From Candidatus Nanoanaerosalina halalkaliphila (GTDB taxonomy: Archaea > Nanohalarchaeota > Nanosalinia > Nanosalinales > Nanoanaerosalinaceae), in contig JALDAE010000001.1 in assembly GCA_022729335.1 (NCBI GenBank), forward strand, positions 1 through 56,003: a stretch of DNA of 56,003 bases, read 5' to 3'. The notes under the pieces are model-generated. The model was not told the origin of the DNA. It saw only the letters and a program-made list of their open reading frames with translations, and made no database searches. Positions within the stretch are counted from its first letter, which is position 1, and each line of letters begins with the position of its first letter. A program made the translations under genes and the position numbers. Shown one piece after another: positions 9,301 through 28,445 of this stretch.

Positions 9301-10329
9301 ATGAACCAAACTTTAAACATGAGGAAAATTCTGGTGTTGTTTTTATTTTTCGCAGTTTTTTGGAGCTCGGTCACAGCTCTTGACTTTGATATAAGAGACG
9401 AATGCTCGGGAGAATATCCAGAGGAAATGTTTTCAATCTCGAACAGGACCAATGCTCATGCTGCTGAACCTTATCATTACGATGGTTTCGTGGACGAGAC
9501 TAATAACAGAGAAGGTAAAGAGGTCTGTGCCACCGACGAATTAAGTACCCGAATAGATACCGAATGTGACTACATGAGAAACCCTATATTTTCATTCTAC
9601 GATGCAGGAAGTAGCAGCGCTCATCTTTCAGCTGAAGGGGATAGAAATGATTATGTTTTATGCGCCCAGAAACTTTCAACAAGCGTTAGGCAGGAATGTC
9701 CAGGTGGATCAGTACCTATTGTCTCGATCTATGATTCTGTTGAGAACCATGTGGCGGAACCCGGTTACTACGACTGGCAGATCTGTGGACAGTTATTCGA
9801 GAACGCTACTCTTGCATACAACTTTACTATGGAGGGTAACACGGATTTTGTTCAAGACGGTGAGATTATAGGTGATGAAGAAACAGAACAAACATCTTCA
9901 ACAGATGATGAATCTTACTACCCTCTATATTCAACAGTTCAGAATGATACGTTAATCTCGGGGATAGTTGGTACAGATACACATCCTCAGGAGACAACTA
10001 TTCAGTTGCAGGATGATACAGCCGCTATAGAGCATTTTTATGGAGGGTCAGGTAGTGCCAGATGGTTCCTTCCTTTAACAACAGGAAGCTATTTCGATAT
10101 AGAGGACAGATTATCCCTTATAGCAGAAAACAACTTCCTAACACAGTTCAACCCTAACTTTGCTTTTGTCCTGGCCGAGGAGATAATGGTTAGGATAACA
10201 CTGGAAGTTATGGACACCGATATAGTAAATGATCTTAGACTGGGATCAGGAAACCATAATCTTGTTATTGAAAACGTTGGAGAAGAAGACAGAGTACCAC
10301 AGGTGAGAATAAATGAAACAACGGAGTAA
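9301..10329 (+). CDS. Secreted hypothetical protein with three Cys-bracketed repeats
   Basis: Signal peptide MRKILVLFLFFAVFWSSVTA (the start may be the ATG at 9319). Three repeats fit EC-x-[FI]S[IF]-x-[AN]H-x-[AS]E-x-Y-x-C, containing six Cys in total. I recognise no family. Confidence 0.55.
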   Translation: MNQTLNMRKILVLFLFFAVFWSSVTALDFDIRDECSGEYPEEMFSISNRTNAHAAEPYHYDGFVDETNNREGKEVCATDELSTRIDTECDYMRNPIFSFYDAGSSSAHLSAEGDRNDYVLCAQKLSTSVRQECPGGSVPIVSIYDSVENHVAEPGYYDWQICGQLFENATLAYNFTMEGNTDFVQDGEIIGDEETEQTSSTDDESYYPLYSTVQNDTLISGIVGTDTHPQETTIQLQDDTAAIEHFYGGSGSARWFLPLTTGSYFDIEDRLSLIAENNFLTQFNPNFAFVLAEEIMVRITLEVMDTDIVNDLRLGSGNHNLVIENVGEEDRVPQVRINETTE

Positions 10330-11617
10330 AGGAGTTTCATCGCTGATATCATCAGCTCTTTTGATAGCCATAGCTGCAGGTGCAGCAACAACTCTTGTTA
10401 TGACAGGTTCACCTCTTGCTGAATCCCTTAGAGAAACAAGAACACTTCAAACTATGCTTGAAAGGATGCCTGAACTTGGAGAACAGGTTGAAACCGTCGG
10501 AGATTTTGAGGAGATCAGTCAAAAAGAGGTGACCGTCAGCTACAACCTGGGCAATCTAAGAGTCATAAGTGCAAGAGATGAAATAGTTTTTAGTCTGGAA
10601 ACCGATTCAAACATAGTTACTCCCAGAACCTCTAGAAAATACGGGAACGTGAGAATTTCGGCTGGAGCAGACGTGAACGTTGAAGAAACAGAAAAAGATG
10701 GTGAAGATGTTTTTGTTGTGGAGAACGAGCACGTTGAGTTTACAGTTCTTGACGTGCCAAGAACATCGGAGAAAGTAACCGGTCACTGGCCTCTGGAAGA
10801 CGGACAAGGACAGAGTTTCGAGGAAGAAACAGGAAGGATGAGCGAAGGAACTATATATGGGGCCGAATGGCCTTACGAGGATGAATGCGTTGGAAGCGAA
10901 TGCCTCAGATTTAATGAAGGCGACTCCGCAGAACTGACCGGAGGTGAATATACCGAAAACTTCTCAATGATATTCTGGATAAATCCGGATACAGGCGGAG
11001 AAAGAGATCTTATCAGCGTGGATGACACAGAGTTAACATTATCAAATGATGGATATCTTGAAGGAGAAATAGCTGGAGAATCTATTAGTAGTGTGGAGCT
11101 GAATGAAGAAGAATGGCAGTCCGCTGCTTTTCAAGCTGATCAAGAAGAGATCTCTGTTTTTGTGAATGAGGAAGAAGAAACATCCGTAGTTTCAACAGGT
11201 ACGCCAACAATATTTGAAAACGATGAAGAGATAACAATAGGTGGTTCTGGCTCGAAAACGTTTGAGATGGATTACATCTCTCTTTACAATGATACCATGT
11301 CCGAAAAAGAGCTGGCCTCAAGGATTGAATCAAAGAGTTACTACGACAGCTTTCTGGTTATTGAAGATTTAGTGATGAGTTACAGGAACAGGGATACCGG
11401 AAAATCTCTTGATAACTTGAACCTGAAAACTTACATAAACAATGAAGAGGAATCAAGTTATGGGTTCGGCCATACAAGTGCCGAGGAAATAGGTACTCAT
11501 CTGCCATCGGGCAAAATAGAGACCAGTATGAACGCCATGTCCGGGGTTGGTTACCGTTATGACCTGGAACTTTTGAGCGGTTCGGACTTTTTCACGGTGG
11601 ATCTGGAACCAAGGTGA
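10313..11617 (+). CDS. Pilin-like protein (class III signal peptide) with a LamG/concanavalin-like domain
   Basis: The N-terminus MKQRSKG|VSSLISSALLIAIAAGAATTLV fits the archaeal prepilin pattern [KR]G followed by a hydrophobic helix. The central region GHWPLEDGQG...ECLRFNEGDSAEL...FSMIFWINPD...ISLYNDTMSEKEL looks like Laminin_G_3. It overlaps the upstream gene by 17 nt. Confidence 0.55.
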   Translation: MKQRSKGVSSLISSALLIAIAAGAATTLVMTGSPLAESLRETRTLQTMLERMPELGEQVETVGDFEEISQKEVTVSYNLGNLRVISARDEIVFSLETDSNIVTPRTSRKYGNVRISAGADVNVEETEKDGEDVFVVENEHVEFTVLDVPRTSEKVTGHWPLEDGQGQSFEEETGRMSEGTIYGAEWPYEDECVGSECLRFNEGDSAELTGGEYTENFSMIFWINPDTGGERDLISVDDTELTLSNDGYLEGEIAGESISSVELNEEEWQSAAFQADQEEISVFVNEEEETSVVSTGTPTIFENDEEITIGGSGSKTFEMDYISLYNDTMSEKELASRIESKSYYDSFLVIEDLVMSYRNRDTGKSLDNLNLKTYINNEEESSYGFGHTSAEEIGTHLPSGKIETSMNAMSGVGYRYDLELLSGSDFFTVDLEPR

Positions 11618-11623
11618 TAAGAA

Positions 11624-12904
11624 ATGCCAAAAATAACAATAGGAAGAAGCGAAGGAGACAAGGAGAAGTTCGGTTTAAGGAAAGGTACAGGATTTATAGG
11701 GAAGCATCTGGTAGGTGAGAAAAATGAAGCTCACGTAGCAAACTCTATCTACATGGATATCGCAAGACCGCATGTTATAGGCGTATTTGGAAAACGAGGT
11801 ACAGGTAAAAGCTATACTATGGGTACTATGGCCGAAGAAATAATAACAGCTCCAGAAGAAGTATCTGATAATCTATCTGCGATCATAATAGATCCTATGG
11901 GTATCTACTGGTCGATGAAGTTCCCTAACGAGAACGACGCAATACTACTGGACGAATGGGATTTAAAGCCCGAGGCAATGGACATAAAACTTTACATACC
12001 CGAGGGACAGGCCAAAAAATTCAGGGAAGAAGACATTCCTTACGATGAAACATTTACATTGAAGCCAGGGGAGCTCTCTACCTCTGACTGGGCCATGGCA
12101 TTTGACATAAAACTTAACGAACCCAGAGGAATACTTCTTGAGAAAGTGCTCAGAGATCTAAAAGAAGACCGGGGAGAGGATTTCGGACTAAAAGAAATGA
12201 TAGACTACGCCCAGACACATGGAGACTTCAAAGATGAGACAAGAAAGGCTCTGATAAATCGTTTCAAGGCAGCTGACGACTGGGGTATATTTGATAAAGA
12301 CGGAAGCGATCTTGACGAGTTCACAAGAAGAGGAGAATTAACTATTCTCGATCTTTCTCAGTTCGGCGCTATCAGGGGAAGCTGGTCCGTCAGATCTCTA
12401 GTCGTTGGATTACTTGCAAACAAGATTTTGAGGGAAAGGATGTCCTCGAAGAGGCTGGAGGAAATGCAGGAGATGGAAGGTATGCAGACCTCGGAGTCTC
12501 CTATTGTTTGGATGTTTATAGACGAGGCCCATCAGTTCATACCGAACGATCACGAGACACCGGCATCAGATCCTCTGCTTTCCTGGGTAAAGATTGGCAG
12601 GGAGCCAGGTGTGTCACTGGTTCTGTGCACACAGCAGCCATACAAACTAAATCCCGATGCTTTGAGCCAGTGCGATGTCGTTTTATCACACAAGCTAACT
12701 GCAAAAAGCGACATAGATGCTCTTAAAAATATAATGCAGAACTACATGCGATACGATCTCTCCACATACATCGACAACCTTCCTGACGCCAAAGGAGCTG
12801 CCATATGTCTGGACGACAACTCGGAAAGGGTTTATTCCCTGAGGATGAGGCCGAGGATGAGCTGGCACGCAGGAGGAACTCCGACTGCCCTCAAGGAAGA
12901 CTGA
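11624..12904 (+). CDS. HerA/FtsK-superfamily ATPase (DUF87-type)
   Basis: Walker A GVFGKRGTGKSYTMG; Walker B VWMFIDEAHQFIP; 426 aa. It starts 7 nt after the upstream stop. Confidence 0.72.
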   Translation: MPKITIGRSEGDKEKFGLRKGTGFIGKHLVGEKNEAHVANSIYMDIARPHVIGVFGKRGTGKSYTMGTMAEEIITAPEEVSDNLSAIIIDPMGIYWSMKFPNENDAILLDEWDLKPEAMDIKLYIPEGQAKKFREEDIPYDETFTLKPGELSTSDWAMAFDIKLNEPRGILLEKVLRDLKEDRGEDFGLKEMIDYAQTHGDFKDETRKALINRFKAADDWGIFDKDGSDLDEFTRRGELTILDLSQFGAIRGSWSVRSLVVGLLANKILRERMSSKRLEEMQEMEGMQTSESPIVWMFIDEAHQFIPNDHETPASDPLLSWVKIGREPGVSLVLCTQQPYKLNPDALSQCDVVLSHKLTAKSDIDALKNIMQNYMRYDLSTYIDNLPDAKGAAICLDDNSERVYSLRMRPRMSWHAGGTPTALKED

Positions 12905-15141: not shown

Positions 15142-16284
15142 GTGTTAAAAATACTTACTATAGTAGGAATCGATCCTGGTACTACTACAGGGATAGCCGT
15201 GATTGACCTAAAAGGAGAAGTTGTTTCTGTGAAAAGCAAAAAAGAGATGGGACTGGGAGACATAACAGAGTTCATATTGGAGAACGGTACCCCTGTTATT
15301 GTAGCAACTGATGTGCATCCTGCTCCCTCGCTTGTTAAAAAAGTATCATCTGCTTTCAACGCAAAGCTGTACGTTCCAGAAAAAGACCTCCCGGTGAAGA
15401 AAAAGAACCGGATGACGAAAAAATATGCCGACATGGACATCTCCGACCATTCAAAGGATGCTCTCGCGGCAGCTTTACAGGCCATGAAATCAGAAAAAGA
15501 CCTGATAAAGAAATTAGAAAAGAAAACCGTGGATCTGAATGAAGAAAAAAGAGAGCTAGTTAAGGAAAAAGCTATAAAGAAGGAAAAATCGATATCAAAA
15601 GTGATCGAACAGGTTCAAACTGAAGACAAGGATCTAGAAGACGAGAAAAATAATGAGACAGAACCCGAACCAGTTGTTAACTGGGAGGAAAAAGCGAAAA
15701 AACTAGATGAGAAACTTGAAAGGAAAGAAAAAGAGATCAAAAGGCTCAAAGATTACATAGACGATCTGAAGGACGAGATCGATTCGAAGAAAGACGAAAT
15801 AAGAAGACTCAAATCCGATAGGCAGAAGAGTATAGACCGCTCTGAGGAAGTCAAAAAATGGAAGAAAAGGTATGAAAACGTTCTTAAGACCAGTAGAAAA
15901 AGAAAGAATAACATAGAAACACTTGAAGAAGAACTAAATAATTTTAAAAAAGCTCTAAAGGAGTTAAATGAGGGTAAAAACCTTTATACTATCTGTAAAA
16001 ACAGGGAAGAGCTTTCGAATGTAAGAGGATCAGTGGCTTTTGTTGAGAAGAACCTTGAAACAAAACCTCCTTCAAACGTAACCGTAGTTGTAGTTCCAAG
16101 GGAGAATGAGAAAGATTTCTACAAGAATAAAGGATTGGATACGGTTTTAAAAAACGAAATAAGTGGTACAGAGGTAAATGGATTCTTTATCTGTGACGAA
16201 GAAGATGTTTTATCCCAGGTAGATTCCAAGGAAGAAACCTTTATAGAATGGCTGGAGGATTACAGGGATAGAAAAGATGTTTGA
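15142..16284 (+). CDS. DUF460 (COG2433) protein: RNase-H-fold (RuvC/YqgF-like) nuclease domain, coiled coil and C-terminal domain
   Basis: IVGIDPGTTTGIAVIDLKGE...VIVATDV...SDHSKDALAAALQA is followed by about 150 aa of K/E-rich heptads. GTG start at 15142. Confidence 0.7.
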   Translation: MLKILTIVGIDPGTTTGIAVIDLKGEVVSVKSKKEMGLGDITEFILENGTPVIVATDVHPAPSLVKKVSSAFNAKLYVPEKDLPVKKKNRMTKKYADMDISDHSKDALAAALQAMKSEKDLIKKLEKKTVDLNEEKRELVKEKAIKKEKSISKVIEQVQTEDKDLEDEKNNETEPEPVVNWEEKAKKLDEKLERKEKEIKRLKDYIDDLKDEIDSKKDEIRRLKSDRQKSIDRSEEVKKWKKRYENVLKTSRKRKNNIETLEEELNNFKKALKELNEGKNLYTICKNREELSNVRGSVAFVEKNLETKPPSNVTVVVVPRENEKDFYKNKGLDTVLKNEISGTEVNGFFICDEEDVLSQVDSKEETFIEWLEDYRDRKDV

Positions 16285-16813
16285 AGAAACTAGGAACAAG
16301 TTAGAAGAATTTGAGGAAGACCTTGATCATCGTCAGAAGAAATTATACAGTTCCTTTAAGTTCCTAATAAAGCTATTATTACTATCCATACCACTATACA
16401 TACTTCTATATATCGAATGGGATCCTGTTATGCTTAGATCTTTCAAGGCTTCGGTTGTGGGACAGATTGTTTCTTTCTTAGGTTTAGAGATTGAGCAGTA
16501 CTCTACCTTTGTGGTTACCGAGCGTTTCACGCTCGATGTAACAAGGGACTCGACGGCATGGAAATCAATGCTTGCCGTTGCAGCACTGGTGCTTGCCACA
16601 GAGTTCAGGTGGAAGAAAAAAATCAAGGGAGCTGTTATAGGGGTGGTTTTTGTTTTCGTCGTTAATATCATCAGAATATCCTCTATGATATTCATGGTTA
16701 TCGTTCTAGGTTTCAGTTATGAGATGGTGCATACATTTCTGTGGCGGTGGGGTCTGACCTTTTTCATATTTCTTTACTGGTATTTCTGGTTGATCAAAGA
16801 AAGAAAGAGTTAA
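16277..16813 (+). CDS. Multi-pass membrane protein, exosortase/archaeosortase-like but without any cysteine
   Basis: Four to five hydrophobic helices. FTLDVTRDSTAWKSMLAVAALVLA resembles the CSG-region of exosortases, VFVVNIIRISS matches the N-x-x-R motif, and HTFLWRWG is a His-containing distal motif. It overlaps DUF460 by 8 nt. Confidence 0.4.
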   Translation: MFEETRNKLEEFEEDLDHRQKKLYSSFKFLIKLLLLSIPLYILLYIEWDPVMLRSFKASVVGQIVSFLGLEIEQYSTFVVTERFTLDVTRDSTAWKSMLAVAALVLATEFRWKKKIKGAVIGVVFVFVVNIIRISSMIFMVIVLGFSYEMVHTFLWRWGLTFFIFLYWYFWLIKERKS

Positions 16814-16815
16814 TC

Positions 16816-17613
16816 CTATGCCGTGTGAGTTGAGAGGTTTCCCTGATACTCTACAGTCTCTTCACCGATATTCACCTCTTCAAAGTCCAGAGGAAGGTTT
16901 TCGTCTCCAAAACTTTCCTCGGTCCCGAACGCTCTAAAAAACATGTTGTTGTATCTGGCTATACTGGCTTTATTTTGATACGATTCCTTTGAATTGTACA
17001 TTGCCTTGTCGGCCATGTGAGTCAGCGCTTTTGAGATAGATTCTTTGTTAACTTCCGAACCTCCATCATACGAAGCTATACCGATACTAACATCGTAGTC
17101 CACCATATCCCTATCGACACCTTCCCATACCTCATCAGAGAGAATATCGTCATAAATCCTTTCAACAAAGTTCAATGTTTCATCCTCGTCAATACCCTCT
17201 AAAATAACAGTGAACTCATCTCCCCCATATCTGAAAGCTTTGTCATAGTCTCTGCTATCTGAAGAAAGTTTATCAGCAACCTTTCCAATTACCTCATCCC
17301 CCTTACAATGTCCATATATATCATTAACCGCTTTGAAATTATCAAGATCTAAAACAACAAGAGAAATTTCTTCTTCAAAACGATCAGCCCTTGAAACAGA
17401 TGTTTTGAGGTCTTCGTAAAACTTGTCAGAATTATATAATCCTGTCTGGCTATCTCTCTGGTTCATCTCCTTCAGTTCTTTATTTTCTGACATAACATTT
17501 TCATAGGACTCCAGAAGATTCATCATTACTTTCTCCTTCTCTTCTTCCGAATACCTTCCTTCATCCATATTTCTTCGGATACCGGGCAAATAACCAGAAC
17601 ATTTGTTACTCAT
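16816..17613 (-). CDS. GGDEF-domain protein (diguanylate cyclase), stand-alone
   Basis: DSQTGLYN, LVVLDLDNFKAVNDIYGHCKGDEV, RDYD (RxxD I-site) then KAFRY-GGDEF (codons at 17212-17226), and ADKAMYNSK. Confidence 0.85.
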   Translation of the reverse strand: MSNKCSGYLPGIRRNMDEGRYSEEEKEKVMMNLLESYENVMSENKELKEMNQRDSQTGLYNSDKFYEDLKTSVSRADRFEEEISLVVLDLDNFKAVNDIYGHCKGDEVIGKVADKLSSDSRDYDKAFRYGGDEFTVILEGIDEDETLNFVERIYDDILSDEVWEGVDRDMVDYDVSIGIASYDGGSEVNKESISKALTHMADKAMYNSKESYQNKASIARYNNMFFRAFGTEESFGDENLPLDFEEVNIGEETVEYQGNLSTHTA

Positions 17614-17914
17614 ACCTAGTAATACGTGACGCTGATATATAAATGTTACTATTCAGTAACAACATATGATGTTTTTTAAAAATTGCAGGAAAAACCGCCC
17701 GAAAGCCCTTAAAAACAAATTTTTCAAAAATTTTCTGGCAATTATTCGAAACATTTCTTCTCGACCATAGGATAGAAAAACAACGTCCACGTCCTTCATG
17801 AACAAAAAAAGATATGTTGTCATCATTTAGCAATAACTAAATAGGTCTTATCAGGTAAAAAACAGCGCTAATAACTACAAATTTTTATATGGAACAATTA
17901 CTTAACTAAATAAT

Positions 17915-20518
17915 ATGACAGAACAGGAAGACCCAGAGGGAAAAAAAGGAGATGAAAAAACAGAGGGCAATGATGAAAAGATTGACCAGTTAAAAGACCT
18001 CATGAATTCCAACAATAATAGCGGTAATGGAGAACCGTCAGAAGATATTAAAAACACGCTTGAAGATTTTGACAAGAAATTAAAGTATCTTTACACCCAA
18101 TTCAAAAACCTAAAGGAAGAAGTCGACGAAATAGAATCTCTTAAGAGCAATTTAAAAGAATTGGAGGAGAGAGTGAGCAGTATTAAGGAAGGAGGTTCTT
18201 CCGGAGAAGGAGTATCCGAAGGGTTCAAGGAAAAACTTGAAGACCTAGAAGAAAAGATTTACATTCTCAGAGACAAGGTACAGGAGATAAATGAGGGTTC
18301 AGAAGGTGAAACCGATAGTGATACACTTGATAAAATCAAGGAAAAACTAAAGGAGATTGACGAAAGAACAAAAGAAAAAGACGAAAATAGACTTGAAGAA
18401 ATAGAAAAAGAAATAGAGGACCTCAAAACCAAGGAAGAACAGGATGACTTCGACAAAGAAGATTTAGAAGATAGATTAGAAGTACTGGAAAAAAGGATAG
18501 GAAGTTCAGAAGAAAAAGAAGACATAAAAGAGAGATTAGAAGATCTTGAAAATAAAATAAACGAAATAAAAGAAAGCGGAGTTCAGGAAGTAGAGATAGA
18601 AAACCTCGATCAGAAGGTAGAGGAGCAGATAAATCAGAAAATAGATGAAAACGTTGAATCAGGCTCGAAAGAAGAGATTAAAGAGATAAACAAAGATCTC
18701 GAAAACACGAAGGAAGAACTGCGAAAAATAAAGGAAAAAATAGATGAAGGATCCGGAGAAAATAAATCAGAAGAAATAGAAAGCAGTATTCAAGATCTCA
18801 AAAATAACCTGCCAGATGAAGAAGAACTAGAAAACATCAAAGAAAGTACTTCAAAGATAGAAGAACTGGACGAACGCATCAAGGAACTTGAAACAAACAT
18901 TAAAGGAATACCCGAAAAAATAGATACTCTCGAGGAATCATTTGAAAAAATCGAAGACCGGTTTGGCGAGTTAAAAGAAGTTGACGAGGAAAAAATAAAG
19001 AAAGAGATAGAAAGAAAACTCAAAAAACAGGTCAGAGATCTCAGGAACGAGTTCGAAGATATCAAAGAACAAAAAATCGATGACGTTCTTCGAATTCATT
19101 TATCGAAGGAGATAGATAAAAGAGCTAATTTAGAGGACAAGAAAGAAGAAGTACAAGAAGCAAAGGAGAACCTTGATAATATTTTAGACAGCATAAAAAG
19201 CAACATAGACAAGAAAGACCTGTCAAATGAGACCATTAAAAGAATCTTTAATGCGTTCAAGAAAGAAAGAGAGCTTTACGAAACCATGCAGACAGATCTA
19301 GACAATCTAAGAACAGATCTGGAGGACTGGACGCGAACCGCAAATTTTGAAATTAGTGAAGAAGTAGAAGAAAATGTTGAAGAGGAGCAAGAAAAGCTTA
19401 AGAACCATCTCAAAGAACATGTAAAAGAAGTAGAACAGGATCTTATCGAAGAGATTAATCAAGAAATAGAAAATCTTGAGGAGTCAAAGGAAAGAATAGA
19501 AGACGAAGTAGAAGACCTAAAGCAAAAGAAAAAACAATATTCGGATGAGATAAAGCAGACATTGGAGGGACAGGTACAGCTCGTTGAAGAGACCAGAAAA
19601 GAACTCGAAGAAAAGATCAACAGCAGGGAAGATGAAATATTTGAATCCCTTGAAGATCTTGAAGAAGAACAAAAAGAACTCGAGGAAGAAATAACTCAGA
19701 AACTGAAAGGTAAAATAGAAGAACTGGAAAAAAGAAAGGAAGAACTATCGGAAGAGAAAGAAACACTCAAAAGAGAGGTTATAGAAGCTCTAGATGAAGA
19801 AATCAAAGAATTTGAAGATGTTAAAGAAAGAATTGACAAGAAGATAGATGACAAGATCGAGAAAGTTTCCGAGAACCTCAAAAAAATTGGAGAGGAGAAA
19901 GAATCTCTTGTCCAAGAAGTGAAGGAAACTCTCGAACACGAGACAAAGGAACTCGAATCAGACTTTGAAACACTCAAGGTAAAAATTGAGAAACAGAGAG
20001 AGCGACTAGACGGAGAATTCACCAGAAAAATGGAGGAGTTCTTCTCACAGAAGGAAGAAATAGTGCTTGATATGGAGTCAGAGATACAGGAAAAGCTTAA
20101 TAATATTGAAGCCGAGAAAGAGGTCTTCAAGAAGGAGATTGGTGAGTCTGTAGAAGAATCTCTTGAAGAAGTAAGAGATAAGCAGAAAGAACTGAGAGAT
20201 CTAGAGCAGGTACTCAAGGACAAGGAAGACGCAAGAATAGATAAGATAGAGAAACTGGACAGTAAAACAGACAAGATTAATATGAACCTCACCAAAGTGG
20301 AGCAAGAGATGGATCAAATCAGGGAACGTAGCAGAAAATACGAGAAGAAACATGCAAATTTGAAAAACAGTATAGAGGACAATGAAGGATCTATAACTCA
20401 GCTGAAACAAGAAATTCAGGAAATGAATGAGGAATTACGTAAGAACAGGAAAAAGATGGAGTCAATCGAAGAAAAAATTGATAATTTTGAGAAATCCAGT
20501 CCTACAGTAGTTGATTAA
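17915..20518 (+). CDS. Very acidic 867-aa coiled-coil protein (E/K-rich), function unknown
   Basis: Heptad-like E/K/L/I composition is nearly continuous. I see no Walker motifs, signal peptide or TM segment. Confidence 0.65.
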   Translation: MTEQEDPEGKKGDEKTEGNDEKIDQLKDLMNSNNNSGNGEPSEDIKNTLEDFDKKLKYLYTQFKNLKEEVDEIESLKSNLKELEERVSSIKEGGSSGEGVSEGFKEKLEDLEEKIYILRDKVQEINEGSEGETDSDTLDKIKEKLKEIDERTKEKDENRLEEIEKEIEDLKTKEEQDDFDKEDLEDRLEVLEKRIGSSEEKEDIKERLEDLENKINEIKESGVQEVEIENLDQKVEEQINQKIDENVESGSKEEIKEINKDLENTKEELRKIKEKIDEGSGENKSEEIESSIQDLKNNLPDEEELENIKESTSKIEELDERIKELETNIKGIPEKIDTLEESFEKIEDRFGELKEVDEEKIKKEIERKLKKQVRDLRNEFEDIKEQKIDDVLRIHLSKEIDKRANLEDKKEEVQEAKENLDNILDSIKSNIDKKDLSNETIKRIFNAFKKERELYETMQTDLDNLRTDLEDWTRTANFEISEEVEENVEEEQEKLKNHLKEHVKEVEQDLIEEINQEIENLEESKERIEDEVEDLKQKKKQYSDEIKQTLEGQVQLVEETRKELEEKINSREDEIFESLEDLEEEQKELEEEITQKLKGKIEELEKRKEELSEEKETLKREVIEALDEEIKEFEDVKERIDKKIDDKIEKVSENLKKIGEEKESLVQEVKETLEHETKELESDFETLKVKIEKQRERLDGEFTRKMEEFFSQKEEIVLDMESEIQEKLNNIEAEKEVFKKEIGESVEESLEEVRDKQKELRDLEQVLKDKEDARIDKIEKLDSKTDKINMNLTKVEQEMDQIRERSRKYEKKHANLKNSIEDNEGSITQLKQEIQEMNEELRKNRKKMESIEEKIDNFEKSSPTVVD

Positions 20519-20552
20519 CGTTTCAAAAAAATAAAACGAAGAAAGAGGGGTT

Positions 20553-20801
20553 TTATTCCTCCTCTTCTAAGAGTTCGTCCTTTATTTCTGAGATTTCCTC
20601 AAATATGTGTATCTGAATGATCGAGCTCAATAGCATTGATCCAATCATCAGGATCATGAGAATAGCAAGGACGATATACCCCATATCCATCGCTGTCCCA
20701 ATTCCTGATAGGATGATGTATCCCACAATAACCAGGATACCGATGGCGAAAGTTATGTAGCCCTTAAGCATGCTTAAACCAAACATTTTAGCACTACCCA
20801 T
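20553..20801 (-). CDS. Small membrane protein with an acidic C-terminal tail
   Basis: 82 aa with two to three hydrophobic helices and the tail EEISEIKDELLEEEE. Confidence 0.45.
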   Translation of the reverse strand: MGSAKMFGLSMLKGYITFAIGILVIVGYIILSGIGTAMDMGYIVLAILMILMIGSMLLSSIIQIHIFEEISEIKDELLEEEE

Positions 20802-20857
20802 TAGAAAATTGATTCTATTCCTATTTAAAATTTATCAAATAAAAAGAAAAAAGGTGC

Positions 20858-22786
20858 TCAGTCCACAAAACTGAGCTCAAGAGATTTTTCATCTATCTCT
20901 TTTTCAAGGTGTTCTCTGAACTTTTCTACAGATACATCCCTGATCTCCTGTTCGTTCCGGTCACGTACTGACACAGTACCGGATTCAGCCTCATCTCCTC
21001 CTACTATAAGCATATATGGTACTCTGTCATCGTGACAGGCCTGTATCTTCTTTCCAAGCGTCCATGACCGGTCTTCAACTTCTACTCTGAAATCCGATAG
21101 TTTTTCCTTGACTTCATGGGCATATTCGAGCTGTTCATCGCTGACAGGCAGTATCCTCACCTGTTCAGGTGCAAGCCATGGCGGGAAGTTTCCTCCAAAG
21201 TGCTCGATCAAAACACCCAGGAATCTGTCGTAGCTTCCCAGAAGAGCCCTGTGTATCATCACGCATCTGTGTTCATCGTTATCCTCTCCCTTGTAATTAA
21301 GGTCAAATGCCTCGGGCATGTTGAAATCCAGCTGTATCGTTGGACCGTCCCATTCTCTGCCTAGTGCATCTATCATTGCAAAATCAATTTTAGGGCCATA
21401 AAATGCGGCATCCTCGGGCTCTAATTCGTATTCAGCTTCTGATTCTTTTAGAACCTCCTCCAGCAGGTTCTCGGATTTTTCCCATATCTCGTCGCTACCC
21501 ATGTATTTCTCCGGGTTCTTCGTTGCTAGTTTAACCTTGAAATCCATACCCATTGTTTCCATTATCTCCACTGCCGAATCAAAAAGCTTTGATACCTCTT
21601 CCTTTATCTGATCAGGCCTTACATAAAGGTGGGCGTCATCCTGTGTGAATCCCCATAGCCTGAAAAGACCTGAGAGCTCTCCTTTCTGTTCTCTTCTGTA
21701 AACCGTTCCGTCCTCGGCATACCTGATAGGTAGATCTCTATAGCTTCTTGCCTCGCTCTTGTATATTAGACAGTGACCAGGGCAGTTCATAGGTTTCATG
21801 CCGTATTCTTCGTCATCAACATCCATCAAAAACATGTCATCCCTGTAGTTCTCGTAGTGACCTGATTTTTTCCAAAGCTCTGTCCTGTAAACATGAGGAG
21901 TCTGTACCTGTACGTGTCCCAGCCTCTCGTTTATGTCATGCATGTAGGACCTCAATTCATCGATCATTTTTTTGCCGTTTGGTCCGAAAAGAGGAAGTCC
22001 GGATCCTGCGATCTCGTTTATCTGGAAGAGACCCATCTCCTTGCCTATCTTTCTGTGATCTCTTTCCTTGGCCTTTTCCATTCTTTCCATGAAGTCTTCA
22101 AGGTCTTTTTCGGAAGTAAATGCCGTTCCATAGATTCTTGTATGCATCTCGTTTTCTTCTTCCCCTCTCCAGTATGCTCCGGAGATGCTAAGGAGATCAA
22201 AAGCTTCAACTTTTCCTGTTGAACTCACATGAGGGCCTTTACACAGATCTATGAAGTCTCCATGTCTATAAAACGTGATTTTTTCTCCGTCGGATTCAAG
22301 TTCACCGAGTAGTTCTCTCTTGAAAGGCTGATCAGAAAGTATCTCTCTTGCCTCTTCCGGGGTTTTTTCAATCCTTTCTAGTTCATGGTCTTTCTCTATA
22401 ATGGACTCCATCTCTTTTTTCAGCTTTTCGAAGTCATCCTTGTCCAATTCCAGATCTCCGAAATCGTAGTAAAATCTATCGTTGTCCGCCCATTTTCCCA
22501 TTCCTAACTTGACATCATCGAATATGTTCATAACTGCATGAGCGAGAACATGGGATGCAGTATGCCTCATTACCTTGAGGTAATCTTCAGAGCTTTCTGT
22601 TATTATCTCTATAGTCCCTTCTCCGGTGATCTCGTGCTCCTTTGCGACTATATCACCATTTATTTTACCAGCAACACAGTCATCACCTAGACCTGTACCG
22701 ATGCTGTATGCTACTTCTTCTACAGTTGTACCTCGTTCAAATTCATTTTTCGATCCATCTGGAAACTCTAGTTCTATCTTTGGCAT
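20858..22786 (-). CDS. thrS: Threonyl-tRNA synthetase
   Basis: TGS-like N-terminus (MPKIELEFPDGS...), editing-domain HTASHVLA, class II core (FRLWGFTQDDAHLY, GPTIQLDF, MIHRALLGS) and an anticodon-binding tail. I prefer the ATG at 22786 (MPKIELEF). Confidence 0.92.
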   Translation of the reverse strand: MPKIELEFPDGSKNEFERGTTVEEVAYSIGTGLGDDCVAGKINGDIVAKEHEITGEGTIEIITESSEDYLKVMRHTASHVLAHAVMNIFDDVKLGMGKWADNDRFYYDFGDLELDKDDFEKLKKEMESIIEKDHELERIEKTPEEAREILSDQPFKRELLGELESDGEKITFYRHGDFIDLCKGPHVSSTGKVEAFDLLSISGAYWRGEEENEMHTRIYGTAFTSEKDLEDFMERMEKAKERDHRKIGKEMGLFQINEIAGSGLPLFGPNGKKMIDELRSYMHDINERLGHVQVQTPHVYRTELWKKSGHYENYRDDMFLMDVDDEEYGMKPMNCPGHCLIYKSEARSYRDLPIRYAEDGTVYRREQKGELSGLFRLWGFTQDDAHLYVRPDQIKEEVSKLFDSAVEIMETMGMDFKVKLATKNPEKYMGSDEIWEKSENLLEEVLKESEAEYELEPEDAAFYGPKIDFAMIDALGREWDGPTIQLDFNMPEAFDLNYKGEDNDEHRCVMIHRALLGSYDRFLGVLIEHFGGNFPPWLAPEQVRILPVSDEQLEYAHEVKEKLSDFRVEVEDRSWTLGKKIQACHDDRVPYMLIVGGDEAESGTVSVRDRNEQEIRDVSVEKFREHLEKEIDEKSLELSFVD

Positions 22787-22946
22787 ATTAAAACCTCTTT
22801 CGCGTAATTTTCTAGAAATTTTTCGGGAAAAATACAATTAACAAAATTTAGAAATACACTACTAAAATCACCGCAGTGTAAGACATCCACCCTTCATTGC
22901 TAACATATTTGAACCACTATTTTTAAAAAGGTTTTGAGTATTTCCC

Positions 22947-24176
22947 TCAGCTCCATAATGCTACTCTGAAAGGTTTCATAGTGCGGTTACCTGTCTCTTG
23001 AGAAAGTACAACAGGATACTCAAGGACAAATACATCCTGGCCGGAAGGTATGTTCATTCCAACAGAGAAATCATCCACCACAGTGATATTGTAACGCATG
23101 TCATCTGCTCCTATGCTTCTTGCAGCTGTATCAGATTCCATATCCTCAAATTCGGACAAACTGGCATTTGATAGACCCGAAAACGTCCTTGGAACAGAAA
23201 GTTCCTCAAAACCCGGTTCAAAGAAAACAGTTCTCATACTTTCGAAATCCTGTTGTTCTCCATAGTAGAAGAGCGAGTCATCTGATCCAAATGATATGTC
23301 AAGAACAATATTTCCGTTTTCAGCCTCGCCGTTCATTACTTCCATGTCCCTGCTGAGGAAGTAAAAAGGTTCGGAACCTCCTGTCAGGTTGAAGAAATCA
23401 TAGTTTTCGTTATCTATTTCCTCGCCCTCAGAGAAATCAACATGTTCAACGTATCCCTGATACTGTCCGAAGAACCCCTCCTCATAACCTTCAGAGAAAT
23501 TAAGCGTGATTTCTTCGTTACCTGACATCTTTACTATACTTGAATCCGCAAAAAACCTTACGGAAACATCGCCGTAATCAAAGTATTCTCTTAAGCTTCC
23601 CGAATAAACATCTGGATCGCTCGAAAAACCAAAGTTCCCTTCAAATATCTTATACGTTTCAGAACCGTATTTTTCAAATCCTTCATCCTCCATATCAGCT
23701 TCAAGACCCATATCATTCGTTACAACATCATCACCATCAGAATATACTTTTTCATCAACATCCGGGTTTTCAAGCTCTTTTGATTCACTGAAAAGCAACT
23801 CGTAATTGTTTGTAAAATCAGCAAGAAACACGGTCTGATTCATCCTATCAAAAAACTCTGCTGTGGTATTTATACCGTTCTCCAGTACTCTGGAATGGTT
23901 TGAAAGAGGGTAACTGGTAGAGAAATCTAGCTCAACAGGATAATCCTCTACACCCGAAACATGGCCTCCTACAGAGTATAATTCGTACTCCCAGCTGTTC
24001 ATAGAAACAAATCTATCTCCAGCCATCATCGAAGAATCTCTGACCTGTTCTCCAAATGGACTGGCAGGAATCGAGAGATTTACAACATACATTATACCTG
24101 TGACAACCGTGATGACAAATATCGACATCGCTATAGCAAAGTCGACACCTACTGTCTGTCCTTTTCTGAACCCCAT
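22947..24176 (-). CDS. Pilin-like protein with a class III signal peptide
   Basis: The N-terminus MGFRKGQ|TVGVDFAIAMSIFVITVVTGIMYVV fits the [KR]G-Q prepilin peptidase motif plus a hydrophobic helix. The remainder is acidic and has no family I recognise. Confidence 0.5.
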   Translation of the reverse strand: MGFRKGQTVGVDFAIAMSIFVITVVTGIMYVVNLSIPASPFGEQVRDSSMMAGDRFVSMNSWEYELYSVGGHVSGVEDYPVELDFSTSYPLSNHSRVLENGINTTAEFFDRMNQTVFLADFTNNYELLFSESKELENPDVDEKVYSDGDDVVTNDMGLEADMEDEGFEKYGSETYKIFEGNFGFSSDPDVYSGSLREYFDYGDVSVRFFADSSIVKMSGNEEITLNFSEGYEEGFFGQYQGYVEHVDFSEGEEIDNENYDFFNLTGGSEPFYFLSRDMEVMNGEAENGNIVLDISFGSDDSLFYYGEQQDFESMRTVFFEPGFEELSVPRTFSGLSNASLSEFEDMESDTAARSIGADDMRYNITVVDDFSVGMNIPSGQDVFVLEYPVVLSQETGNRTMKPFRVALWS

Positions 24177-24225
24177 AACAGAAAATTGAAGAATTCTGTA
24201 TAAAACGTTTATCGAAACAGCTTTT

Positions 24226-24756
24226 TCACGGCGTTATCCTCTCAACTTTGTAGTAAGTAACTCCTTTTTCGGAATCAACTACACCCCACAGCATGGTTGA
24301 TCTGATGTTCTGGGCAAGTCTTACAGCTCTTGACATCTCTGAAAAAGAAAGTGAGTGATCTTCCGGTACTGCATGAACCACCCATTTCGTGTGCTCTCTC
24401 TGGGACTTGGGCCCTTCCTTGTAGGGATTCACACCCCTGGGATAAACCCTGAAGTGGGCTCCAAACTTGAAACCTGATTTTAAAATATAGCCTCTTTCTC
24501 TCAAATCCGAATACACAGCATACTTCTGCTGGAATTCTTCGTCAAGCGAGCAAAATCTGTTGAAAAGATCCTCTTTTTCTATCGGTCCATCATCATCGGA
24601 AACCTCGAGTTCGTTTCTTTCAACAAGATGCATTGCCTCACTAAGAGAAAGATCCAAATGATCCTCGAATATTTTACCGTAGTAAAGGTCATCGTGGATT
24701 TCTTCGTAATCCTCCCATACCCTGACTCGGTTCTGCAAAAGATTTCCCTTTATCAT
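24226..24756 (-). CDS. endA: tRNA-splicing endonuclease (short, about 176 aa)
   Basis: YAVYSDLRERGYILKSGFKFGAHFRVYP...HTKWVVHAV...MSRAVRLAQNIRSTMLWGVVD matches the EndA catalytic domain. Confidence 0.88.
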   Translation of the reverse strand: MIKGNLLQNRVRVWEDYEEIHDDLYYGKIFEDHLDLSLSEAMHLVERNELEVSDDDGPIEKEDLFNRFCSLDEEFQQKYAVYSDLRERGYILKSGFKFGAHFRVYPRGVNPYKEGPKSQREHTKWVVHAVPEDHSLSFSEMSRAVRLAQNIRSTMLWGVVDSEKGVTYYKVERITP

Positions 24757-24795
24757 CAGTAAGAAAAAGAGAAACCGAGATTTAAAAAAACAGCT

Positions 24796-25545
24796 TTATG
24801 CACCTATTTTCTCGGCATCGTAATCATCCTGGCCAACAGGTCTGTAATCCTTAATCATCTTTTCAACAAGAGAAAGATCATAACCCCTCGACTCACAGAC
24901 CCTGAACATCATGTCGGAATACTTGCTCTCAAAAATATCGAACTCTTCATCTTCTTTGGCACAGTACATGGCCTTATCAGCAAGATTAAGGAGACACTCC
25001 GACACAATCTCGGAATCAAATCCCTTCTCAGTATCATAACCTGCAACACCGATCGAAACACCGTAATCCAGATCTTTTTCCTCCCAAACCTCTTCCTGGA
25101 CAATACTATCATAGATTCTTCTGGCAAAATCCCTTGCTCCCTCACCACCAGAATCCTCCAACAAAACAGCAAATTCATCACCTCCATACCTTGCGGCAAT
25201 ATCTTCGTCCCTTATATTATTTTTTAAAACTTCACCAACGTTCTCAATAACTTTATCACCTACACAGTGACCGTACCTGTCATTTAAGCTCTTAAAATTA
25301 TCAAGGTCCAAGAAAACAAGAGAAAAATAACTGTTATCGTCATCCCTTTTATTGTTGCTGTAGCTTTCCTCAATCTTTTCAGCTACCTTATCAACAAACT
25401 CGGGACCCTCCAGAAGACCGGTACGAGAATCAATATTCTCCGAATCCTCCAGGAGTCTCTTGATTAGTTCATCTTTTTCCTCTTCAGAATACTTTCCTTC
25501 CTCAAGATTCCTCTCTATACTGGGCAGACAACCACTGCTCACCAC
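24796..25545 (-). CDS. GGDEF-domain protein (diguanylate cyclase), stand-alone paralogue
   Basis: DSRTGLL, LVFLDLDNFKSLNDRYGHCVGDKV, RDED (RxxD) then IAARY-GGDEF (codons at 25171-25185), and ADKAMYCAK. Confidence 0.85.
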   Translation of the reverse strand: MVSSGCLPSIERNLEEGKYSEEEKDELIKRLLEDSENIDSRTGLLEGPEFVDKVAEKIEESYSNNKRDDDNSYFSLVFLDLDNFKSLNDRYGHCVGDKVIENVGEVLKNNIRDEDIAARYGGDEFAVLLEDSGGEGARDFARRIYDSIVQEEVWEEKDLDYGVSIGVAGYDTEKGFDSEIVSECLLNLADKAMYCAKEDEEFDIFESKYSDMMFRVCESRGYDLSLVEKMIKDYRPVGQDDYDAEKIGA

Positions 25546-25802
25546 AATAAAACCTCACCATAGGATATATTACAAAATATGATATAAAAAAATTAGCATT
25601 TATCTGGTTCGAAAATACTTGTATACCCCAACAAGAAAAAATTACAGTACGATCCTCCCATCATAACCCGTAAAAGGAACAAAACCAGATTTGACAAGAT
25701 ACTTCAAGATATCTATATTTGGCCTGTATCCAAATTCGTTTTTTTGTTTAATAAGTCATTCTAAGAAATTTTAATAGAGGAAAAAATGGGAGAAATGTGG
25801 AT

Positions 25803-26363
25803 TTATAATCCAAGTCTATCAGCGTCCTCTTTCATGGCCTCAAGACCTGTTGAAACAAATTCCTCAAGCTCCATCCCGAATTCCTCACACATTTTGATTC
25901 TGTCCCTGTCTATTGATTTTGCAAAGGAGCTGTCATCCACTTTTTTCATGACGGATTCTACCTTTACTTCCTCCAGGGTGCTGTTCGGCATTACAAGGGC
26001 CGTTGCAACAACAAGACCTGAAAGAGCGTCGGCAGCTATAAGTCCGTAGTCAATATCTCTAGAAGGTTCGGAACCTGTATGTTCATGGTTGTGAGACCTG
26101 ATGGCTTTGACAACGTCTTCGCTTACCTTTCCCTCCACTTTTTTTGCGGATATCTCGCCGTGTTTCTCGTGGTTGTCCTGAGTTTCCTCATAATCAATAT
26201 CGTGCAAAAGACCGGCTTTAATCCATTTTTCAGGGTCTTTGTCAAGTTCTTCAGCGATTCCTTCCATTATATCAGAAACAGCGTACATATGTTTCCTTAA
26301 TTTGTCATCCGAAACGTTTTCGCGGACTTTTTCAACTGCTTCCTCCCTTGTTAGACCTTCCAT
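25803..26363 (-). CDS. HD-superfamily metal-dependent phosphohydrolase
   Basis: H...HD pattern (KHMYAV...AGLLHDIDYE, HEKHGE, RSHNHEH). ATG at 26363 is preceded by AGGTG at a 6-nt spacing. The ORF-track GTG start lies inside that SD. Confidence 0.75.
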   Translation of the reverse strand: MEGLTREEAVEKVRENVSDDKLRKHMYAVSDIMEGIAEELDKDPEKWIKAGLLHDIDYEETQDNHEKHGEISAKKVEGKVSEDVVKAIRSHNHEHTGSEPSRDIDYGLIAADALSGLVVATALVMPNSTLEEVKVESVMKKVDDSSFAKSIDRDRIKMCEEFGMELEEFVSTGLEAMKEDADRLGL

Positions 26364-26450
26364 AAAAAACACCTAACTACTACATGAAAAGAAATGGTTT
26401 TTAAAGTTTTGAACTTCACAAAAAACACCGGGATTCCGGAGGTAATAACA

Positions 26451-28445
26451 ATGGCAAAGAATTACAAGGAGTACAGAAACAAGATGAAAGAACTTGTAGA
26501 GCTAGAAAGAGAAGAAGAAATGGAGAGACACCGAAAAGAGATAAAAAAACTTTCAGGGCAAGAAAGACAAAATCGTGGAAGGGCTATACTTGATTTAAAA
26601 GGTAGATACGAGGGTAAGGGTATTGCAAACGACCACATAATAAAGTTTGTTTCAAAAAAAGGTTTGCCGGACTCTGAAATTTCGGTGGGCGACCTCGTGA
26701 GGGTTTCTAAAAGGCAGCCAGAGAACCCTGATAACCCAACAGGTACTGTCGTGGAAATGACGGGTCATTCAGTTACGGTAGGTTTTTCTGAAAGACCTCC
26801 AAAATTTATACAGTCCAGAGGTGTTCGCCTGGATCTCTATGTTAATGACATAACATTTCAGAGAATGCTCGATGCTATAGAAAATCTTGAGAAAAGCGAA
26901 GAGTTGATCGATGTCTTGATGGGTGAAAGAAAACCTTTTTTTGGAGAAATAGGGGATTTAGAGCTTTTGGAAGATGAACTGAATGATTCGCAAAAAGATG
27001 CGGTCGAAAGTAGTCTGAAAGCTGAGGATATATTTCTGATCCATGGGCCTCCAGGAACGGGAAAGACCACTACGCTTGCCGAGGTCGTGGATCAACACAT
27101 AGAAAAAGGAGACAGAGTCCTTGTAACTGCAGACTCCAACACGGCAACGGACAACATGGTAGAGTTTCTGTCTAAAAGAGGTAGGAACGTTCTAAGGATA
27201 GGTCATCCAGCAAGAGTCAATAAAAACCTGAGGAGTTACAGTCTGGACGAGAAGATCAAGGAAAAAACCAAGTACAGGGACTCGGAAAAGCTTCGAGGAA
27301 AGGCTTTTGAACTAGATGAAGAACAGGATAAACATACTTTTCCATCAGGAAGAAACCGCAGAGGACTTGGGAACAAGGCCATAAAGGATCTGGCAGAGAA
27401 AGGAAAAGGAAGTCGTGGAATACATCCCAAAAAAATAGAGTCCATGGCCAAGTGGATAAAGCTTCAGGATAAAAAAGACAGACTTTTTGAAAAAGCAGAG
27501 AGGCTTGAGGAAGAAGCTGTTCAGGAGCTTATAGAAGAAGCTGACGTGATTTGTACAACTAACTCCACAGCCGGAAGCGAAGTTATAGAAGGAGTTGATT
27601 TCGATGTGGTATGTATCGACGAGGCCACACAGTCAACCGAGCCATCTTGTCTAATACCCATAACCAAAGCTGAAAAAGTGGTGATGGCAGGAGACCACAA
27701 GCAGCTGCCTCCAACAATCCTGAACAGTGAAGCTAAAGACAGAGGACTTGAAAAAACACTCTTCGAAAGAATGATAGAAGTTCATGGTGAAAAGATCAAG
27801 AAAACTCTCAGGGTACAGTACAGGATGAACACGGATATCATGGGTTTTTCGAACAAAGAATTCTACGAGAATGAACTAGAAGCTCATGAAAAAGTTGCAA
27901 ACCATCAGCTGAACTTAAATAAAGACGGAGAAATTGAAAAAGTAATCGATCCGGAGAATCCCTTCACCCTGGTGGACACGAACGGTGAGTTCATGGAAGA
28001 AACAAGAGAAGGCTCCACTTCAAAAAGAAACAGGGGAGAATCAAAACTTGTTGAGTACATACACAAAAAACTTGTTTCAAAAGGTGTGGAACCGGAAAAA
28101 ATAGGTGTGATCAGTCCATACAGTGATCAGATAGATCTTCTAGAAGAAAGATTAGGAAGCACTGAGACAGAGATAAAGACGGTGGACGGTTACCAGGGAA
28201 GGGAAAAAGACGTTATTGTCATCTCCCTCGTGAGGTCAAACACGGACGACAGGATAGGTTTCCTAGGGGATCATAGAAGGTTAAACGTCGCACTCACAAG
28301 AGCCAGGAAAAAAATTATCGTCATAGGTGATTTTGACACGCTGGGGCAGGAAGAAATATATGGCAAGATGGATGAATATGTCAAAAACAAGGGCAGAAAA
28401 GTGGTTTTGAAAAACAATAGCGACCTAAAAATCCAAACTATTTAA
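26451..28445 (+). CDS. Upf1/IGHMBP2/Dna2-like superfamily-1B helicase
   Basis: [53 protein letters not shown] and [12 protein letters not shown] at 26451 is preceded by GGAGGT. Confidence 0.85.

Follow-up and report, generated by a model that had tools for sequence, protein, structure and literature searches.

Cyclic di-GMP (c-di-GMP) is the most widespread second messenger of bacteria and is treated as absent from Archaea. The described enzymes closest to the proteins studied here are the bacterial diguanylate cyclases (DGCs) WspR (structures 3bre and 3i5c), Caulobacter DgcB (6ttr), and Pseudomonas SiaD (7e6g), together with PleD of Caulobacter crescentus (1w25, 2v0n), which is the reference for an active, product-inhibited DGC. 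We analyzed positions 1 to 56,003 of contig JALDAE010000001.1 (assembly GCA_022729335.1, Candidatus Nanoanaerosalina halalkaliphila), a 56,003-nucleotide (nt) stretch of DNA that we call the window, and focused on two minus-strand genes that each encode a stand-alone GGDEF protein. Judging from their residues and their modeled fold, we consider it probable that both proteins actively synthesize c-di-GMP and are inhibited by this product. They would go back to an old bacterial source and are maintained in a sub-lineage of Nanohaloarchaeota.

Like WspR, DgcB, and SiaD, the window proteins combine a GGDEF fold with a preceding long helix that aligns with the dimerization stalks of these enzymes, and they share the A-site, the metal and guanine ligands, and an RxxD motif placed five residues upstream of GGDEF. 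The resemblance to SiaD extends to a domain-level match to its family model NF038266 (E 1.9e-34), which lies far below the equivalog cut-off (119 versus 290 bits). The window proteins differ from all three in having no REC or other sensor domain, in lacking the Arg that corresponds to R446 of PleD, and in carrying a GYLPxI helix at the N-terminus that is specific to their clade and a YxxMxFR tail at the C-terminus. They also differ in having a strongly acidic surface adapted to halophilic life, with isoelectric points (pI) of 4.2-4.3, in their archaeal host, and in having no SiaABC-like or Wsp-like partner genes nearby according to the Pfam scan of the window. The receiver domains of PleD are likewise missing from both.

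GGDEF genes have been noted in archaeal sequences before. According to Galperin in 2018 (PMC5847659), the one GGDEF domain known at that time from an archaeon was that of Methanocella arvoryzae (CAJ37382), and the same paper cautioned that bacterial-type regulators in archaeal metagenome-assembled genomes (MAGs) might be contamination. Braun in 2021 (PMC8646023) listed more than 300 BLAST hits of archaeal GGDEF proteins, many of them in Asgard and DPANN MAGs, and found no c-di-GMP in Haloferax or Sulfolobus. Among the previously noted archaeal hits are Ca. Micrarchaeum proteins made of REC plus an inactivated GGDEF. According to Romling in 2022 (PMC10086821), the presence of archaeal GGDEF genes on archaeal contigs still needs confirmation. 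In our own literature search, we found no paper on GGDEF proteins or c-di-GMP in Nanohaloarchaeota and none demonstrating c-di-GMP in an archaeon. The novelty suggested by the initial annotation of the window, a model's reading of the DNA letters, is therefore reduced. The existence of GGDEF open reading frames (ORFs) in archaea is not new, as the hits reported in 2021 attest; the advance lies in a clade that has been verified, is inherited vertically, is adapted to a halophilic life, and is marked by its own N-terminal motif and by the loss of R446. Whereas contamination was left open for earlier archaeal hits (PMC5847659, PMC10086821), residence in the archaeal genome is backed here by synteny, by a clade of relatives, and by compositional adaptation. 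The intact A-sites of the window proteins also set them apart from the inactivated GGDEF of Micrarchaeum, by description rather than by sequence comparison.

Gene 1 (16816-17613, minus strand; copy 1 or W1) encodes an acidic, stand-alone, diguanylate-cyclase-type protein of 265 amino acids (aa) with a pI of 4.33. Gene 2 (24796-25545, minus strand; copy 2 or W2) starts at GTG and encodes a protein of 249 aa with a pI of 4.24, the exact sequence of which is on record as P0121. The two proteins are 45% identical (BLASTP, E 5e-55). The initial annotation had proposed both ORFs as true GGDEF genes and had named Pfam PF00990 as the profile that should recognize them. As expected, PF00990 matched gene 1 with 116.1 bits (E 1.7e-33, residues 53-214, giving a catalytic domain at 16972-17457 of the minus strand) and gene 2 with 110.9 bits (E 6.6e-32, residues 56-199), compared with a gathering cut-off of 23.8 bits. 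TIGR00254 agreed, with 141.8 bits for gene 1 and 121.8 bits for gene 2 at a cut-off of 37.4 bits. The relatives of solved structure were GGDEF-domain proteins in 52 of 52 cases, nearly all of them DGCs, with 3ign as the best match (3.5e-23) and WspR and PleD following.

On reading the sequence, we found every motif and codon position quoted in the initial annotation to be correct. The A-site GGDEF codons lie at 17212-17226 in gene 1 (residues 130-134) and at 25171-25185 in gene 2 (residues 121-125), both read directly from the DNA of the minus strand. Five residues before GGDEF is the I-site RxxD, the counterpart of PleD R359/D362, which reads RDYD in gene 1 (17242-17253, minus strand) and RDED in gene 2 (25201-25212, minus strand). 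The DSQTGL (gene 1) and DSRTGL (gene 2) motifs and the guanine-recognition segments FKAVNDIYGHCKGD and FKSLNDRYGHCVGD are present as well. In the public gene call (P0001), gene 1 starts at M16 and yields a protein of 250 aa. However, upstream of M16 (17569-17613) the protein reads SGYLPGIRRN, and the pattern SGxLPxIxRN is kept in the paralog and in relatives; therefore, the 265-aa ORF with its ATG at 17613 is the better model. A TTTATATA box is found about 30 nt upstream of this ATG.

For the roles of individual residues we followed two reviews of PleD (PMC7288161, PMC12943098). The numbering of the PleD reference sequence reproduced 14 of 14 cited positions. Both copies keep D327, F331, K332, N335, D344, R359, D362, R366, the GGDEF motif, R390, and K442, with E370 present as Asp, and the same residues from D327 to K442 are retained in the diverged relatives L085 and P0127. 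Each copy thus has the metal ligands D327 and E370 (as Asp), the transition-state Lys K332, the guanine pair N335/D344 as Asn and Asp, and an I-site consisting of RxxD at the right spacing plus the secondary Arg equivalent to R390. That the full A-site and both base-recognition residues are kept across proteins only 40-50% identical points to selection on catalysis. In copy 1 numbering, the reaction would convert two GTP to c-di-GMP by way of a D89/D132 metal site, K94, and guanine contacts from N97 and D106. The product would then bind the RxxD I-site and the R390 equivalent and exert feedback inhibition.

We propose a protein layout, based on the model of copy 1, that would run from the clade-specific N-terminal helix (GYLPxI...N) through a coiled-coil stalk and a complete GGDEF domain to a short conserved C-terminal tail. 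The AlphaFold2 model, built from a 57-sequence alignment, has a predicted local distance difference test score (pLDDT) of 87.9 and a predicted template modeling score of 0.81. It places the GGDEF domain at residues 52-215, followed by a short strand and a helix formed from the conserved C-terminal YxxMxFR segment. Foldseek matched the model with a probability of 1.00 to more than 50 DGC chains at a TMt of up to 0.85, as befits a palm-type GGDEF fold. The best matches were WspR 3bre, the phytochrome-DGC PadC 5llx, the fusion GCN4-WspR 3i5c, and DgcB 6ttr, which likewise joins a coiled coil to GGDEF (TMt 0.84-0.85), along with SiaD 7e6g. A confident 29-residue helix (residues 23-51, pLDDT >90; 17461-17547, minus strand) precedes the domain and, in this monomer model, overlays the stalks of WspR, GCN4-WspR, DgcB, and SiaD; it is predicted to be a parallel coiled-coil dimerization element. 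Its sequence shows a heptad pattern in which hydrophobic residues follow a 3-4 spacing and Asn occupies core positions, as is seen in parallel dimeric coiled coils. Given the stalk fold, the heptad-like spacing, and the likeness to WspR, DgcB, and SiaD, a stalk-mediated homodimer is the best-supported mechanism. In such a dimer, the parallel stalks would pair two GTP-loaded GGDEF domains.

The two copies differ within the stalk. Compared with copy 1 and the rest of the clade, copy 2 is missing 13 stalk-helix residues (near its residues 38-41). The shorter stalk could alter the coiled-coil register relative to the catalytic domain, which in register-sensitive DGCs could produce a different basal state. 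Ahead of the stalk, residues 1-17 of copy 1 (17563-17613, minus strand) carry the clade-specific motif SGYLPGIRRNMDEG, which is conserved in W1, W2, L085, P0123, and P0127. Residues 3-17 of this segment (GYLPxI...N) are modeled as a helix with lower confidence (block pLDDT of 51 for residues 1-10 and 84 for residues 11-20). The helix is a possible partner-binding or regulatory element. We speculate that input could reach the enzymes through this helix and the stalk, with a partner protein acting much as SiaC does on SiaD, or else simply through transcription.

The contig that holds the window is chromosomal and belongs to a nanohaloarchaeon that has not been cultivated, a DPANN archaeon and salt-in halophile. 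We judged the host by whether archaeal information-processing genes had Nanohaloarchaeota as their nearest named relatives and whether the proteome was acidic, and we found both. Among the 54 window ORFs that we scanned against Pfam are archaeal- or eukaryal-type genes for S8e, L7Ae, aRF1, Hef (helicase plus ERCC4), NucS, prefoldin alpha, the tRNA-splicing endonuclease, a DUF460 protein, and an archaeosortase-family protein. All named relatives of the window aRF1 among the best 120 listed were Nanohaloarchaeota (Nanosalina, Nanohalobium, Nanohalovita, QJJ-7) at 55-63% identity, and metagenomic relatives reached 87, 81, and 75%. The relative at 87% belongs to a contig from a sister sample (L089; ENA ERZ27266004 k141_227454, 4232-25458) that matches the window from about 30 to 52 kb in near-perfect gene order: Memo, S2, TatD, HAD, Ham1, MetRS, MazG, aRF1, NYN, L7Ae, NucS, thioredoxin, Lhr, and SNase. 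This contig is 71.5 kb long, and the stretch compared stops at SNase, about 4-5 kb before the expected position of GGDEF gene 2. The proteome has a median pI of 4.7 (52 ORFs) and a mean Asp plus Glu content of about 20%. Such acidity is typical of salt-in halophiles.

The tRNA genes of the window were recognized by Rfam at 3349-3459 (plus strand, 57.7 bits) and 37878-38030 (minus strand, 45.4 bits). At 111 and 153 nt, compared with a 71-position tRNA model, they must contain introns, of about 38 and 80 nt, and their anticodon loops read Lys-CTT and Glu-TTC. ARAGORN in bacterial mode detected neither tRNA in the window. The gene immediately downstream of GGDEF gene 2, endA (24226-24756), encodes the splicing endonuclease.

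Both GGDEF genes fit this genome in composition. Their GC contents are 39.1% (gene 1) and 41.3% (gene 2), and their GC contents at third codon positions (GC3) are 0.38 and 0.40, compared with a window mean of 0.43 +/- 0.05. Their codon usage falls within the range of window genes of the same size, and their pI is as acidic as that of the rest. The loci are 7 kb apart, each between archaeal genes, and the flanking DUF460, exosortase/archaeosortase-family, endA, and thrS genes were all confirmed. Two further assemblies agree with the window. An ENA assembly (k141 contig, 53.5 kb) is 99.99% identical over 12.7 kb spanning both loci, and the Logan assembly of run SRR9330145 is 100% identical over 2.1 kb across the junction of the archaeosortase gene and gene 1.

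To our minds, the most telling sequence evidence for genuine residence is synteny. In the window, a DUF460 gene (15142-16284, plus strand; PF04312, 3e-39) is followed by a gene for an exosortase/archaeosortase-family membrane protein (16277-16813, plus strand; PF09721, 1e-07; TIGR04178, 5.8e-10) that is convergent with gene 1. Using a clade-specific DNA pattern, we found the JGI metagenome contig Ga0207414_1005893 (L085), in which GGDEF, archaeosortase, and DUF460 genes have the same order and orientation as in the window at 15142-17613. The L085 proteins are 44% (GGDEF), 38% (archaeosortase family), and 39% (DUF460) identical to those of the window. Since the cyclase and its neighbors have diverged to a similar degree within a conserved arrangement, gene 1 must have been in place here before two well-separated lineages parted from their common ancestor.

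To find further relatives, we searched 1.84 billion cluster representatives exhaustively with a profile, which returned more than 300,000 GGDEF proteins at E values up to 1e-10. P0123, P0127, P0201, and P0233 were the only other small single-domain proteins that aligned over most of the profile, including the N-terminal regions. A word-indexed search added P0269. This search misses members, since copy 2 (P0121) was never returned although it was both in the collection and part of the query, and we drew no conclusion about absence from it. A profile scan of genome contigs with an alignment of the two paralogs gave only bacterial GGDEFs among the matches listed and did not recover the window contig. 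Where enough sequence exists, the genomic contexts of the clade are archaeal. The 13.8-kb contig that encodes P0201 also carries the gene for fibrillarin and one of the HVO_2718 family, and P0233 is encoded next to a GHMP kinase gene and genes of the AcnX and UbiD families, a set characteristic of the archaeal mevalonate pathway. Both contigs have acidic proteomes with a median pI of 4.7-4.8.

We placed eight clade sequences in a neighbor-joining domain tree together with the 60 best-scoring bacterial domains and PleD (100 bootstraps). The eight small, acidic, stand-alone GGDEFs were monophyletic in 80 of 100 replicates, so that the GGDEF phylogeny called for in the initial annotation sets them apart from their best bacterial homologs. 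Within the clade, copy 1 grouped with L085, P0123, and P0127 (55 of 100), in agreement with the synteny, and copy 2 was the deeper paralog. The nearest homologs outside the clade are all bacterial, at 30-41% identity. The nearest bacterial domains are about 37-42% identical, and because they are spread over many phyla, no donor is evident. One high-scoring candidate donor, P0270 ("Gammaproteobacteria"), was set aside: the protein has two GGDEF domains in tandem, which inflate its score, and its gene lies in a bacterial pilin/EAL setting. A viral or mobile origin was likewise dropped, the clade-specific DNA pattern having no match in IMG/VR.

Given that GGDEF is an overwhelmingly bacterial domain and that all outside homologs are bacterial, one could suppose that the window genes are contaminating bacterial DNA, the result of a chimeric assembly, or a transfer that is very recent and non-functional. 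This supposition conflicts with composition, codon use, and pI values indistinguishable from those of the window, with two separate loci that are each embedded among archaeal genes in three agreeing assemblies, and with synteny shared with a relative in which the flanking proteins have an identity of only 38-39%. It also conflicts with a monophyletic clade in which the ORFs are intact and the catalytic residues kept. We regard it as effectively refuted. The initial annotation, which had thought a mis-binned bacterial fragment unlikely, is borne out. The history that we favor would be an old bacterial-to-archaeal transfer, followed by vertical inheritance and duplication in the archaeal lineage and by adaptation to the acidic proteome. 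With the reality of GGDEF ORFs in archaeal MAGs left open in reviews (PMC10249747, PMC5847659, PMC10086821), this locus offers a well-controlled positive case.

Several observations weigh against reading the window proteins as active synthases of this origin. The equivalent of R446, a GTP phosphate contact, is Gln in copy 1 and Glu in copy 2; of the eight clade members, seven have no basic residue there, and P0233 has Lys. L294 is replaced in both copies, by Gln or Arg. The clade is rare, with nine sequences from at least five samples among about 15 billion proteins plus the JGI metagenome contigs. The neighbor-joining tree is a rough one, with bacterial domains picked by their similarity to the clade. 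None of the 54 window ORFs matched EAL, HD-GYP, PilZ, ComFB, GIL, or degenerate GGDEF/EAL models in Pfam, and Rfam identified no c-di-GMP riboswitch in the 56-kb window, only the two tRNAs. Lastly, reviews to 2023 (PMC10249747, PMC8646023) know of no archaeon in which c-di-GMP has been detected. In this they agree with the initial annotation, and we found no later report in the literature searched.

Nanohaloarchaeal aRF1s number in the hundreds compared with nine clade sequences, and the GGDEF genes are therefore a sub-lineage trait rather than a general one in the phylum. At the residue level, the initial annotation had credited both paralogs with every residue expected of an active, product-inhibited enzyme. 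This holds for the A-site, the metal and guanine ligands, and the I-site; it does not hold for the R446 equivalent, for L294, or for R313, which is kept in copy 1 and is Asn in copy 2. Of the phosphate contacts, K442 is retained and R446 is not, a gap that does not exclude family membership. Arg or Lys occupies the R446 position in 222 of 325 (68%) motifs of the retrieved bacterial homologs. As about a third of these homologs lack a basic residue there, the loss is unusual rather than disqualifying, and it makes cyclase activity likely, not assured. The missing Arg may lower the affinity for GTP or be compensated at molar K+.

The loss of the R446-type Arg, to Glu in copy 2, also favors the main rival explanation, in which catalytically weak or dead GGDEFs serve as nucleotide-binding receptors or scaffolds through their I-site, as degenerate GGDEFs do in bacteria. 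The strict retention of RxxD and the R390 equivalent in the group of W1, W2, L085, P0123, and P0127 fits such a role, as does the failure to find turnover enzymes near the cyclases. However, bacterial receptor-type GGDEFs normally have a decayed A-site, whereas here proteins only 40-50% identical have kept GGDEF, the two metal ligands, K332, N335, and D344, which implies selection for catalysis. The share of bacterial homologs without Arg or Lys at the R446 position further weakens this alternative. A receptor would moreover depend on a source of c-di-GMP, which the haloarchaea tested are not known to have (Braun 2021, PMC8646023). Overall, we think it unlikely that the window proteins are receptors or scaffolds of this kind.

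A second alternative is that the proteins are active cyclases or polymerases with another product, such as 3′,3′-cGAMP, c-di-AMP, or linear pppGpG, for example in stress or antiviral signaling. The altered phosphate-binding and L294 positions are compatible with this, and Asn stands at the D344 selectivity position in P0123 and P0201. GGDEF enzymes with other products do exist, as the Hypr GGDEFs cited in PMC10249747 illustrate. The Hypr cGAMP synthases (GacA family) share the fold and the A-site with the window proteins. Hypr enzymes are said, in work by Hallberg in 2016, to have Ser or Thr at the D344 position. Both window proteins instead keep the canonical guanine pair of N335 and an Asp at D344 and are therefore not filed as Hypr. 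As the initial annotation had reasoned from the GHxxGD motif, this Asp argues for GTP/GTP specificity over the Hypr type. The defense context expected of antiviral signaling was not apparent either. PADLOC assigned no defense system to the cyclases or to the HD, FIST, and pilin-like proteins described below, and gave only generic helicase and coiled-coil matches among the other proteins scanned. For the window pair, then, we judge a different product to be improbable, more so than a receptor role. Elsewhere in the clade, the residues vary: D344 is Asn in P0123 and P0201, K332 is replaced by Asp or Asn in P0201 and P0233, and RxxE replaces RxxD in the subgroup of P0201, P0233, and P0269. These variants (P0123, P0201, P0233, and P0269; loci L086, L083, and L088) suggest functional divergence toward an altered product, lost activity, or lost feedback.

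The reading of the two window proteins as probable c-di-GMP synthases raises the question of their pathway. A complete system would add a phosphodiesterase and a receptor such as PilZ, MshEN, or a riboswitch, and we found neither within the window; for EAL, HD-GYP, and PilZ, this agrees with the initial annotation. Two neighbors that it had drawn attention to are where it placed them, namely an HD hydrolase gene 257 bp from the start of gene 2 (25803 versus 25545) and a FIST gene at 3666-4853. The HD/HDIG protein (25803-26372, minus strand, upstream of gene 2) matches generic models (PF01966, 8.7e-14; TIGR00277), has no HD_5/HD-GYP match or GYP motif of the HHExxDGxGYP type, and was rejected as an HD-GYP phosphodiesterase. 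The FIST protein (FIST_N, 4e-37; FIST_C, 2e-24) was rejected as a dedicated sensor of the cyclases, being encoded 12 kb away with nothing beyond proximity to connect it. Since only the synthesis half is visible in the window and nothing ties the HD or FIST gene to the cyclases, "signaling module", the term used in the initial annotation, is too strong.

Any degradation and receptor components may be non-canonical. It is conceivable, although we would stop short of calling it probable, that this sub-lineage of Nanohaloarchaeota has a true c-di-GMP pathway, in which two coiled-coil GGDEFs would work with turnover enzymes and receptors other than EAL, HD-GYP, and PilZ and perhaps control the surface or attachment of an ectosymbiont. 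Two hints of a surface role are that gene 1 is conserved beside the archaeosortase-family gene, which we otherwise treat as a conserved neighbor that provides context only, and that gene 2 lies two genes from a gene for a pilin-like protein. If correct, this would be the first c-di-GMP signaling system in Archaea. With two proteins of 250-265 aa to express and assay, the question of archaeal c-di-GMP is now directly testable. Should the proteins prove active, the lack of recognizable phosphodiesterases and receptors would point to new effector types, and a symbiont that depends on its host and has a tiny genome would offer a compact setting for their discovery. Should they prove inactive, the clade would represent GGDEF domains repurposed outside bacteria.

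Several other genes of the window were noted along the way. Divergent from gene 1 is an ORF (17915-20518, plus strand) for an 867-aa protein that is Glu/Lys-rich, extremely acidic with 32.5% Asp plus Glu, and predicted to form a coiled coil; it gave only weak coiled-coil-type matches (apolipoprotein and the coiled-coil regions of LmuB, JetC, and ZorA). The pilin-like protein near gene 2 (22947-24176, minus strand; 409 aa) has a type IV pilin-like N-terminus resembling a class III signal peptide, MGFRKGQ-TVGVDFAIAM..., and a weak match to DUF7287. A second pilin-like N-terminus, MKQRSKG-VSSLISSALLIAIAAG..., begins a 434-aa protein with a Laminin_G_3 match that is encoded within 9301-12904 (plus strand). 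Its gene is flanked by those for a 342-aa protein that looks secreted and for a HerA-like ATPase. The pilin-like proteins and the HerA-like ATPase may belong to a surface or attachment apparatus.

An ORF adjacent to the HD gene (26394-28445, plus strand) encodes an Upf1/SMUBP-2-like superfamily 1 helicase that matched the PADLOC model for Mokosh MkoA with an E value of 3e-102. This match probably reflects shared helicase domains rather than defense, as other Mokosh parts were not seen. Finally, two tandem Kef-type cation/H+ antiporters, each with a TrkA_N (RCK) domain, are encoded at 5887-9238 (plus strand); in other organisms, this class of Kef/RCK transporters is usually regulated by c-di-AMP.

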